44,385 bases of DNA from Thermotogota bacterium (GTDB lineage Bacteria; Bipolaricaulota; Bipolaricaulia; UBA7950; UBA9294), in contig JBDKUT010000108.1 of NCBI GenBank assembly GCA_039679545.1, positions 1 to 44,385 of the forward strand, given 5' to 3'. Of the stretch, positions 21,001-24,000 are shown in pieces; position 1 is the first letter of the stretch, and every line of letters starts with the position of its first letter. The position numbers were made by a program.

Positions 21001-24000
21001 AGGACGTACCCGCACCAGGCGAGAAAGGCATTCCAGGTCGCCGCTCCGGCTACGGTGAGGAGACAGAACGGGACAAGACCCATCCTCGCGACCCCGGCCG
21101 GAATCGAGATGAGGTGGCGAACCACGGGGATGAACCGTCCGAGGAAGATTGTGAGACGGCCGCGTCGGGAGAAGAACCTCTCAGCACGGTCGAGATCGGC
21201 GACGTCAAGCAGAAGAACTCTTCCGTACTTCACGACGAGCGGCCGCCCGCCGAAGCGCCCGATCGCGTACGAGAGAAGCGATCCCACAAGACTCCCGAGC
21301 GTAGCCAGCGCGACGGCAATCGGAGCCGACATCGTCCCCTCGGCGACGAGAAACCCCACAAACGGCATGACCGCTTCGCTGGGCACGGGGAGGACCATGC
21401 TTTCCGCGACCATCAAGAAGAAGACGCCGGCATAGCCGGTCGCCTCCATCACCTGCATCCCCACGGCCGCGAAGAACTCGGTGACTCCCATGCGCTCCTG
21501 CGCCGCCGGTCTTTAGACAAGACCTGCAGCGTCTGAGTGACTTCACTCGATCGGACGAGGAATGTCAAGCAGGAACCTGCCCGAAACCCAGCGTCCGTTG
21601 CTGCCTTGACAGCGCGGCGGCGCCTCCCATACCATTCACTTCGGCGTTTCGGGTCGTTAGCTCAACGGTAGAGCAGCGGACTCTTAATCCGTCGGTTACA
21701 GGTTCGAATCCTGTACGGCCCACAGTGCTCCCGAGGGTATTCCTCTCGGGCTCTCGGGTCGTTAGCTCAGCCGGTTAGAGCACCTGACTTTTAATCAGGG
21801 GGTCGCTGGTTCGAGTCCAGCACGACCCACGTTGATTGAAACGGGATCGCACGGGATCCTATAATTCCGATCGACCTGTCCCCATCATCTAGTGGCCCAG
21901 GATACCGGGTTTTCATCCCGGCGACAGGGGTTCAAATCCCCTTGGGGACGCCAGCGAGTATCTTGCGAATCCAGAGGTGCTCGCTATAATGGGCGAGTAG
22001 CTCAGTTGGGAGAGCATCCGGCTTACATCCGGAAGGTCGCAGGTTCGAGTCCTGTCTTGCCCACTGGCTATCCGTACGGGGACGTGGTCCAGTCAGGCCT
22101 AAGACGCTGGATTGTCACTCCAGAGATCGCCGGTTCAAATCCGGTCGTCCCCGCATGATCCCGCCGAGGTAGCTCAGCTGGTAGAGCACGGCCCTGAAAA
22201 GACCGGTGTCCCCAGTTCGACTCTGGGCCTCGGCACCACTTCCCAGCCCTCGACCTTCGACCGAATTTCCCAACAAGTCTTCCGAAGCTTCGTAGCGCGC
22301 CCTGAGCCAGGAGAAGCACGTTTCCGGGATCGACGCGGAAATGCCTCATCTCATCTGCATTTCCGACCTGTGACACAGGCTGCGTCCTGTGGACAACCCT
22401 GTGGACAAAGGGTCCGAAATGGCTCTCGATGAGAGGTTTGCTGTGGATAAGTTTCGGCGGCAATGAAATGCCCCACACGTGAAGTCCGAGTCACACGCAC
22501 CGAACCCCGCCGTCCCCATGTTGTCCACAGACCGGCATATAGCTATATGCCTTATCAGGATTGCGTTTCCGAGCGTTTTCCACAATCCCCAGCTGCCGTG
22601 CTCGTGGCGATAGGTCGTCGCCCAGCGAAATCGACCGGGTAGCAGTCCGGGGACACGTGTCTCGCCATCGCATAGGTCTTCCGGCGCTTCGGCGAGAGAC
22701 GGGCTTCCGCTGCTGCGTTGCCATCCGACCTCGTCGGCCTTGCCTCCATCGTCCCCCCTTGACCCCACGACTTGTCGTTCGTTACGCTCACCTTCGGTGA
22801 AGCCATGAGGAGGACTGGTGGGCGAGAGTCCTGTTACTGTTTGGGATAGCGTAATGTCCGATCTTCGGACTCAGGTCCCGTCAACAAGCTACGAAGCCTG
22901 GCTCTCGGACATCGAGCCGCTCGAGGTGAGTGAGGGATCGCTTGTCATCGGGGTCCCCGACAGCTTCAAGAAAGGCGGCATCGAGCGCCGTTACCGAGCG
23001 ACCATCGAGGAAATCGCGTCGTCCGTGTGTCAGCGGCCGCTCGCCCTTGAGGTCCGCGTTGTCGGTTCGGAGAGTGAGGACGCCACTCCCGCATTGGTTC
23101 ACAACGAGCTGGTCGTATCGGCCTCTCAAGGCGCGCTGCCTCTGAACCCGGACTACACGTTCGCTTCCTTCGTTCGCGGAGAAAACAACCGCCTCGCGGT
23201 GGCCGCCTCCGAAGCGACGGCGGACGCCGTCGTACGACGCCTCAAGAAGCCGTACAACCCCCTCTTTATCTATGGAAGCGTCGGTCTCGGGAAGACACAC
23301 CTGCTGCAAGCGATCGGGAATTTCGTTTCGTCCGCGGATCGGGACTGCGCCGTTACGTACACCACATCGGAGCGCTTCGCCATCGAGCTGATCAACGCCA
23401 TTCGCAGCAACACCACCGCCGCGTTCCGGGAGAAGTACCGCCAGGTCGACCTTCTGCTCATCGACGACGTCCATTTCTTGAAAGGCAAAGAAGCCACGCA
23501 GGAGGAGCTCTTCCATACGTTCAACGACCTTCATGGCAACAAGAAGCAAATCGTCCTCTCCAGCGATCGCCCTCCCGAGGACCTCTCGGGCCTCCAAGAG
23601 CGCCTGGTGTCGCGCTTCAAATGGGGACTCGAAGCCGACATTCAGCCGCCCAACTTCGAGACGCGGATGGCCATCCTGCGGGAGAAGGCGATCACACGCG
23701 GCATCGACGTCGACAACGATATTCTGGAGCTTATTGCAAAGCGCATCTCATCGAACGTCCGGGCCCTGGAGGGTGCCCTGGTGAAGGCGATTGCCTACGC
23801 CGAGCTTCAAGGCGAGAAGCTGACCCCGAAGAACCTGGAAGGGATTCTGCCCAAGGAAGGCCGACGGCCGAAACTAACGATTGCGCACATCAAAGATGAG
23901 ATCTCGACACGCTACCAACTCCCGCGCAGTGAGCTCGAAGGAGCAAGCCGCAAGAAAGAGATTTCGCAGGCTCGGCAGATCGCCATTTACCTCGCGCGCG

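Follow-up and report, generated by a model that had tools for sequence, protein, structure and literature searches.

Dihydrouridine synthase genes are missing from most genomes of the Bipolaricaulota, whose tRNAs most likely mature without dihydrouridine

The stretch of DNA analysed here (the window, 44,385 nucleotides) carries a cluster of six tRNA genes at 21651-22238, all on the + strand, which ARAGORN and Rfam place where an earlier survey of this genome had reported it. The six genes score 60.2-75.4 bits on the Rfam model RF00005, against a gathering score of 29, and a sigma-70-like promoter match lies 5' of the first of them; within 21400-22500, three promoter-consensus matches were observed, against 0.2 expected from shuffles. 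The features are the following:

21606..21635, + strand: sigma-70-like promoter match (TTGACA, 18 nt, TACCAT), a match to the consensus only, 5' of the first tRNA
21651..21723, + strand: tRNA-Lys (anticodon CUU), D-loop AACGGTA with U at position 20; ARAGORN, Rfam RF00005 73.7 bits
21756..21830, + strand: tRNA-Lys (anticodon UUU), D-loop AGCCGGTTA with U at 20 and 20a; ARAGORN, Rfam 75.4 bits
21878..21953, + strand: tRNA-Glu (anticodon UUC), D-loop AGTGGCCCA with a single U 5' of G18; ARAGORN, Rfam 60.2 bits
21991..22064, + strand: tRNA-Val (anticodon UAC), D-loop AGTTGGGA with U at 16 and 17; ARAGORN, Rfam 70.9 bits
22078..22154, + strand: tRNA-Asp (anticodon GUC), D-loop AGTCAGGCCTA; ARAGORN, Rfam 61.7 bits
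22163..22238, + strand: tRNA-Phe (anticodon GAA), D-loop AGCTGGTA with U at 17 and 20; ARAGORN, Rfam 60.8 bits

The D-loop is named after dihydrouridine (D), a modification that nearly all other bacteria possess, and the tRNAs of this genome keep the uridines from which D is usually made. ARAGORN called 51 tRNAs in the whole genome, 48 of which have a canonical TTC-type T-loop and serve all 20 amino acids; the survey had counted 47 well-supported genes. A uridine occupies the usual D targets (16/17 or 20/20a/20b) in 43 of these 48 tRNAs. The D-loops of orthologous tRNAs showed no systematic difference between five genomes that carry a dihydrouridine synthase (Dus) and six that do not (this genome and five others), and with U retained at the D positions we saw no relaxed or altered constraint in the tRNA sequences; this counts against the reading of D-less tRNAs proposed below. 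At position 20 of tRNA-Asp the Dus-carriers have U and the Dus-less genomes C or A, an observation from few and related genomes that means little.

The survey had also reported that no Dus-family gene is found in this genome, and four independent searches (PF01207, TIGR00737, tblastn and a custom HMM) bear this out. The genome, from an uncultured member of the phylum Bipolaricaulota (Acetothermia), is 2.35 Mb in size, lies in 163 contigs and is 93.55% complete. A member of PF01207 was expected to score above the 20.4-bit cut-off and to align with most of the model's 311 positions; the best match here scores 12.1 bits, covers model positions 182-225 and falls within a PdxS gene. The bacterial DusB model TIGR00737 gave at best 15.1 bits, and the archaeal Dus-like model TIGR00736 matched in none of five genomes. 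When the phylum's 13 Dus proteins served as tblastn queries against this genome, the best score was 38.9 bits, the hits lay on the PdxS and PyrD genes, and no remnant or pseudogene was seen. An HMM built from 133 DusB sequences reached no more than 27.5 bits against the 26,582 six-frame ORFs of the genome. At the place that corresponds to the dus position of genus g14 there are other genes and no trace of a dus remnant, a result that does not separate loss from gain.

This gap extends over most of the phylum. Of the 184 species genomes of the phylum, 13 have strong PF01207 matches, 14 in total and scoring 194-253 bits, the next best match anywhere scoring 42.3 bits, and the carriers are 10 of the 11 genomes of genus g14, both genomes of genus g9 and one genome of family f9 (G093). 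The remaining 171 genomes have no true Dus by this model, among them all six of the genus studied here, this genome included. The survey's figure of 171 out of 184, with the gene confined to two genera and one other genome, is therefore reproduced, as is its observation that all 10 bacterial control genomes ring; across both domains, PF01207 detected Dus in 13 of 14 controls at E <= 0.001.

Could a Dus gene be present in these genomes and have been missed, either in incomplete bins or as a sequence too divergent to be recognised? The fragmented state of the genome studied here would allow it, most phylum genomes are incomplete metagenome bins, and in 63 genomes PF01207 gave weak hits only. However, about 66 of the 71 genomes that are at least 90% complete (by rounded quality figures) have no true Dus, and none was found in the two single-contig, closed genomes (G005 and G006), whereas single-copy Pus10, taken as a control of detection, was found in 168 of the 184 genomes and in 71/71 of the high-quality ones; incompleteness thus does not explain the gap. 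The chance of missing dus in all six genomes of the genus, calculated from their completeness figures under assumed independence, is about 1e-6. The 20 weak-only genomes that we examined, out of the 63, gave 20 hits that all belong to other families: ten dihydroorotate dehydrogenases (one assigned by eye), three DHO_dh proteins with a 4Fe-4S domain, two OYE-type flavin oxidoreductases, three HisA/HisF and two NanE proteins. Divergence is opposed by the agreement of three curated models, tblastn and the purpose-built HMM, and by the Dus proteins that do exist in the phylum. Those of g9 and g14 score 307-313 bits on TIGR00737, above its cut-off, and carry the motifs LAPM(A/S)GYTD and DIN(A/C)GCP, by which they are canonical DusB; our search would therefore recognise such a gene. 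We regard a technical origin of the gap as close to refuted and give it hardly any credence: the gap is real and lineage-wide, and not an assembly artefact.

The few Dus genes of the phylum bear on its history. The protein of G093 is of a different type, only 30% identical to that of g9, and at least one horizontal gain of Dus has taken place within the phylum; the GC contents of the contigs that carry dus (0.475) and Pus10 (0.468) in that genome give no sign of contamination. The g9 Dus is 59% identical to the g14 Dus, and 54-63% identical to DusB proteins labelled Anaerolineales, Chloroflexota or Planctomycetes. A Dus tree of 133 rows, made by a quick method, supports two clades at 99 each, g9 with 11 rows and g14 with 27, and leaves its backbone open. 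A Pus10 tree grouped g9 and g14 with the Dus-less genera g1, g2, g5 and g16 at weak support (89); all its g14 rows were labelled Dus-carrying, including G153 (71% complete, with no Dus hit), a point to bear in mind for its count of two changes.

We propose that dus was probably lost early in the history of the phylum, that one DusB type would later have been regained or exchanged in g9 and g14, and that an unrelated type would have been acquired by G093. The competing history is that dus was lost many times independently, through streamlining of tRNA modification, g9 and g14 being the last keepers of the ancestral gene. The identity between their Dus proteins lies near that between their Pus10 proteins (63-69%), as under vertical descent within a family, the dus genes differ little in GC content from the sequences that flank them, and neither tree rejects a single origin of the g9 and g14 genes; the absence of several other tRNA enzymes, discussed below, would also fit a general tendency to lose such genes. 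Nevertheless, under this history no fewer than nine other families would have had to lose the gene, as would most of family f1's 18 genera. Furthermore, the DusB of g9 and g14 is as close to Anaerolineales/Chloroflexota proteins as g9 is to g14, while the Clostridia-type DusB is only 33-40% identical to it, the gene neighbourhoods of dus differ between the two genera, and the G093 gene shows that horizontal gain happens in this phylum. We therefore consider repeated loss unlikely, although it retains real weight, and the early loss followed by regain the more parsimonious reading. The survey had spoken of an ancestral loss; a single loss is indeed the parsimonious choice, and it is not demonstrated, the backbone of these single-gene trees being open.

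What does the gap mean for the tRNAs? No Dus-family gene is present although the target uridines are, so the tRNAs most likely lack D. They are transcribed with ordinary D-loops and would keep unmodified uridine at the sites that carry D in other bacteria, a consequence that we predict from the absence of the gene and consider the likeliest one. The gap does not stand alone: it belongs to a broader absence of bacterial enzymes that modify the tRNA body. In panels of five genomes, each of which includes the two closed ones, TruB and TrmA were found in none and TrmFO in none above cut-off; TruA and TrmB were not found either, the scans for TruA, TrmB and TruB covering 6 to 11 genomes. MiaA is encoded. 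The loss of Dus would then be one item of a lean set of tRNA-body enzymes.

In place of some of these enzymes' products, archaeal-type modifications are predicted. This genome encodes a Pus10 (contig C29:3757-4938) that scores 465 bits, above the cut-off of TIGR01213, a model that rings only in the four archaea among the controls, and a TrmY (contig C80:215-775) that scores 170 bits, above the cut-off of PF04013, and TrmY is found in 5/5 genomes. Together they are predicted to give pseudouridine at 54/55 and 1-methylpseudouridine at 54. The archaeal flavour is confined to these two proteins; a wider archaeal pattern was sought and rejected, with ArcTGT in 0/5 genomes above cut-off, Trm1 in 0/6 and TrmI in 0/6 save for one partial hit of 26.6 bits. 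The survey had read the Dus gap as in line with Pus10 and TrmY. Both are encoded, but the Dus-carrying genera g9 and g14 possess them as well, so the tie between them and the loss of Dus is weak. Taken as a whole, an account in which Dus is absent after an early loss with later regain or exchange, and in which tRNAs mature without D as part of a lean tRNA-body set, appears to us probable. More tentatively, and as a possibility that we would not put above an even chance, we suggest that this environmental phylum has a minimal, partly archaeal tRNA core, without D, T54, m7G46 and TruA-type pseudouridine at 38-40, with Pus10 and TrmY making pseudouridine 55 and 1-methylpseudouridine 54, inherited from an early and probably moderately thermophilic ancestor and retained in the lineages that descend from it.

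D might instead still be made in these tRNAs by an enzyme unrelated to Dus, either an RdsA-like FAD protein of PF03486 or another flavin reductase. The precedent is E. coli RdsA (YhiN), a D synthase unrelated to Dus, whose superfamily is described as not isofunctional, some members adjoining trmB, dusA or tRNA-modification genes (PMC11317573). This genome encodes a member of the superfamily (contig C91:3397-4611; PF03486 196.6 bits, PF22780 56 bits, TIGR00275 285 bits), with two tRNA-Ser genes lying about 2.9 kb away, and PF03486 members occur in 5/5 genomes tested (199-264 bits). The gene is, however, also found in G131 and G156, which carry Dus, so the distribution of the RdsA-like protein is not complementary to that of Dus, and the known target of RdsA in that report is U2449 of 23S rRNA, not tRNA. 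Another candidate, the DHO_dh protein with a 4Fe-4S domain (contig C32 in this genome), has a patchy distribution within the family (26 of 74 genomes), occurs in Dus-carriers and is absent from many Dus-less genera, and we rejected it as a replacement. A substitute synthase acting on tRNA seems to us improbable. The survey's term "D-free" would accordingly apply to tRNA at most, and not to RNA in general, since the genome has a gene for an RdsA-superfamily protein that matches PF03486 and TIGR00275.

The survey had described the D-free state as linked so far to hyperthermophilic archaea. Reverse gyrase was found above cut-off in 0/5 genomes, only its topoisomerase I part giving matches, and a rough estimate from the proteome puts the growth temperature of this organism at about 53 °C; the genome thus shows no marker of hyperthermophily, and the state is not that of a hyperthermophile. 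According to a preprint (bioRxiv 10.1101/2025.11.21.689855), strain J31, a first isolate from this phylum, grows between 45 and 65 °C and best at 55 °C. The controls Thermus thermophilus and Thermotoga maritima retain Dus above cut-off, and temperature alone thus fails to explain its loss. A comparison meant to show whether the Dus-carriers are "cooler" lineages was rejected as uninformative: for g9/g14 the IVYWREL fraction of orthologous proteins implied shifts of +5, -18 and -5 °C, which are inconsistent, and G093 is a single case (n=1). Nor is the D-free state peculiar to archaea, as Dus-less Mollicutes are known (Grosjean et al. 2014, PMC4014445). Of the survey's interpretation there remain a lineage-wide gap, the encoded Pus10 and TrmY and tRNA without D as the likeliest outcome, while the hyperthermophile link, the ancestral loss and the tie to Pus10/TrmY lack support or call for qualification.

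Our literature searches turned up no publication that deals with Dus or dihydrouridine in Bipolaricaulota. If our reading is true, a signature of the D-loop and T-loop held to be "universal" in bacteria would be dispensable over the whole history of a phylum, and a gap of this extent in environmental bacteria with genomes of about 1-4 Mb would be a natural experiment on the role of D. The weight is nonetheless below what the survey had given it: Dus-less bacteria have already been published, the claim is one of gene absence, and losing an enzyme that cells can do without is mechanistically not new. That such a state is tolerable is indicated by laboratory strains, since the quadruple dus mutant of yeast, which is devoid of D, is reported viable (PMC9176250), and the B. 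subtilis strain mutated in both dusB1 and dusB2, likewise devoid of D, was grown in growth tests (PMC11162810).

Several known systems resemble the one proposed here. In D-free hyperthermophilic archaea such as Pyrococcus furiosus there is likewise no Dus-family gene, D is predicted or measured to be absent and Pus10 is present, and the lack of D in this species served to find the dus genes, as a review relates (PMC9176250). Here we deal instead with a bacterium, known from its genes, with no reverse gyrase, ArcTGT, Trm1 or TrmI found and a roughly estimated growth temperature near 53 °C. Thermus thermophilus and Thermotoga maritima are also warm-habitat bacteria with ordinary tRNA genes; they keep Dus, whereas most Bipolaricaulota are without it. 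The Dus-less bacteria reported so far are, according to PMC4014445, the genome-reduced Mollicutes, in which the gap likewise falls within a wider loss of tRNA-modification enzymes; Mollicutes, however, are host-dependent with genomes below 1 Mb, whereas the Bipolaricaulota are environmental, have genomes of 0.7-4.1 Mb and show the gap nearly phylum-wide. Finally, the dus-null strains of the laboratory were engineered, whereas the state that we propose for the Bipolaricaulota would be natural and long-standing.

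Our searches show that the genome of this Thermotogota bacterium (2,353,244 bases in 163 contigs, 93.55% complete, 65% G+C) carries no gene for a dihydrouridine synthase (Dus), as the survey had reported. The best match to the Dus model PF01207 reached 12.1 bits and that to the DusB equivalog TIGR00737 15.1 bits; tblastn with the phylum's 13 Dus proteins gave at most 38.9 bits, and an HMM that we built from 133 DusB sequences gave at most 27.5 bits against 26,582 six-frame ORFs. The archaeal Dus-like model TIGR00736 matched in none of five genomes. The ORFs underlying the weak matches are PdxS, IMP dehydrogenase, dihydroorotate dehydrogenase and a protein combining DHO_dh with a 4Fe-4S domain; as a replacement for Dus, the last is too patchy (26 of the 74 genomes of the family).

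The survey's counts for the phylum Bipolaricaulota were reproduced with PF01207, which gave 14 matches of 194–253 bits in 13 of 184 genomes: 10 of 11 in genus g14, both genomes of genus g9 and one genome of family f9 (G093). The next-best single match scored 42.3 bits. No Dus was found in the six genomes of the organism's own genus, nor in G005 and G006, each closed in a single contig. Weak matches alone occurred in 63 further genomes, and in all 20 of these whose ORFs were inspected the ORFs fall in other families:

Dihydroorotate dehydrogenase, 10 genomes (one judged by eye)
DHO_dh plus 4Fe-4S, 3 genomes
HisA/HisF, 3 genomes
OYE-type oxidoreductase, 2 genomes
NanE, 2 genomes

Single-copy Pus10 is detected in 168 of 184 genomes and in 71 of 71 high-quality ones, against 13 of 184 and, by our own reading of rounded quality figures, about 5 of 71 for true Dus, which rules out incompleteness as the cause of the gap.

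ARAGORN and Rfam RF00005 both recover all six tRNA genes of the cluster that the survey placed at 21651–22238. They lie on the + strand and are Lys-CUU, Lys-UUU, Glu-UUC, Val-UAC, Asp-GUC and Phe-GAA, with RF00005 scores of 60–75 bits (gathering score 29). About 590 bases of it are kept, at 77–82% identity, in all six same-family genomes queried (G131, G130, G152, G156, G157 and G118). Three sigma-70-like consensus matches lie at the cluster, where 0.2 are expected from shuffled sequence:

21606–21635, + strand, TTGACA-18-TACCAT, before the first tRNA gene
21836–21865, + strand, TTGAAA-18-TATAAT, before the third tRNA gene
21963–21990, + strand, TTGCGA-16-TATAAT, before the fourth tRNA gene

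The last ends one base before tRNA-Val, too near to act as an ordinary promoter of that gene. Genome-wide, ARAGORN made 51 tRNA calls, of which 48 have the canonical TTC T-loop and cover all 20 amino acids; mean tRNA G+C is 0.64. The other three, which span 89–95 bases and include one with a four-base anticodon, are probably false positives:

C21:28593–28687, over-long call with a non-canonical T-loop
C105:23308–23396, over-long call with a non-canonical T-loop
C134:5827–5919, over-long call with a non-canonical T-loop

Two differing Thr-Tyr-Thr sets are present (C60:10020–10321 and C138:516–4331); the bin has an estimated contamination of 3.62%, and one set may belong to a second organism.

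When the D-loops were parsed in a simple way from G18-G19, 43 of the 48 tRNAs had one or more U in the variable stretches, the usual sites of dihydrouridine (D), with 74 such U in total, and orthologous tRNAs of Dus-carrying and Dus-less relatives showed no systematic D-loop difference. Judged from its sequence, the genome has putative substrates for D and lacks the Dus enzyme. The likeliest outcome would be tRNA without D, since dus-null mutants of yeast (PMC9176250) and of B. subtilis (PMC11162810) are described as being without any D, and the yeast mutant is reported there to be viable. The genome does encode a flavoprotein of another kind:

C91:3397–4611, + strand, RdsA/YhiN-superfamily flavoprotein (PF03486 197 bits, TIGR00275 285 bits)

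Two tRNA-Ser genes are about 2.9 kb away from this gene. In E. coli, RdsA is described as the maker of D2449 in 23S rRNA, and its superfamily as not isofunctional (PMC11317573), so D in the rRNA of this organism is possible and a role of the flavoprotein in making D in tRNA is conceivable. Nothing in its distribution points to the latter, as the gene occurs in all five genomes tested, Dus carriers among them. Absence of D from tRNA is the reading that we prefer.

The gap does not stand alone. TruA is nearly universal across all domains of life, and its model TIGR00071, matched by 13 of 14 control genomes, found nothing in 11 genomes (six of the own genus, G005, G006 and the Dus-carrying G131, G156 and G093). 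TruB and TrmA were absent from five of five genomes, TrmFO and ArcTGT stayed below cut-off in the five examined for each, and the six own-genus genomes lack TrmB (m7G46, TIGR00091), Trm1 and, save for one weak partial match, TrmI; all six have MiaA. Two enzymes are of archaeal type:

C29:3757–4938, − strand, Pus10 (465 bits; in 168 of 184 phylum genomes)
C80:215–775, − strand, TrmY (170 bits)

Among the control genomes archaea alone match these two models, and according to a paper of 2019 no orthologs of Pus10 are found among bacteria (PMC6380271). On C80, a cluster of six tRNA genes is about 1.5 kb away from the TrmY gene. The survey saw Dus loss as in line with Pus10 and TrmY; both are indeed present, but the Dus-carrying genera share the same two enzymes. 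The Dus gap is one among several in near-universal tRNA-body enzymes, and has no specific tie to the archaeal T-loop enzymes.

Where did the existing Dus genes come from? Those of g9 and g14 encode canonical DusB proteins (307–313 bits on TIGR00737, with flavin-site and catalytic-cysteine motifs) that share 59% identity, and the genes have different neighbours in the two genera. Their nearest relatives outside the phylum, at 54–63% identity, are labelled Anaerolineales, Chloroflexota or Planctomycetes, and Clostridia-type DusB is 33–40% identical. The g14 proteins are identical to NCBI proteins labelled Candidatus Bipolaricaulota and Candidatus Acetothermia, and one relative of the g9 protein (L106) is likewise labelled; these labels are an indirect check of the phylum assignment. 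Identity between the G093 protein and that of g9 is only 30%, and the contig that carries the G093 gene agrees in G+C with the remainder of its genome. Vertical descent from a single ancestral gene cannot account for both types, so one horizontal gain or more must have taken place. The Dus tree supports the g9 clade and the g14 clade well and leaves the backbone open; in the Pus10 tree of family f1 both fall in a weakly supported group alongside Dus-less genera, and the genera closest to g9 by Pus10 identity, g18 and g6, are Dus-less. Early loss followed by regain would take fewer events than retention; this more parsimonious order, which agrees with the ancestral loss that the survey proposed, is an inference that the trees do not settle.

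D is heat-labile, and a moderately thermophilic way of life in the ancestor may have promoted the loss of Dus. A hyperthermophile-type state is not borne out: reverse gyrase is absent, the topoisomerase I part of its model alone matching in five of five genomes, and the IVYWREL fraction, 0.414 over 1,628 ORFs that are likely to be coding, translates into about 53 °C by a formula that is reportedly due to Zeldovich and colleagues (2007). Thermus and Thermotoga controls retain Dus (PF01207). The phylum's first isolate is described in a preprint as having a growth optimum of 55 °C (bioRxiv 10.1101/2025.11.21.689855).

In summary, the Dus gap is confirmed as an observation, and its interpretation as ancestral loss of D is partly supported; the D-free prediction is open to test in culture. 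Our literature search, supplements being outside its scope, found no paper in which dihydrouridine or Dus is connected with Bipolaricaulota or Acetothermia. The D-free state is not, as had been suggested, linked so far only to hyperthermophilic archaea, since Dus-less bacteria are already described by Grosjean et al. for Mollicutes (PMC4014445). Bipolaricaulota, with a Dus gap set within a lean tRNA-modification repertoire, is a new, large, environmental member of this known class of Dus-less organisms.
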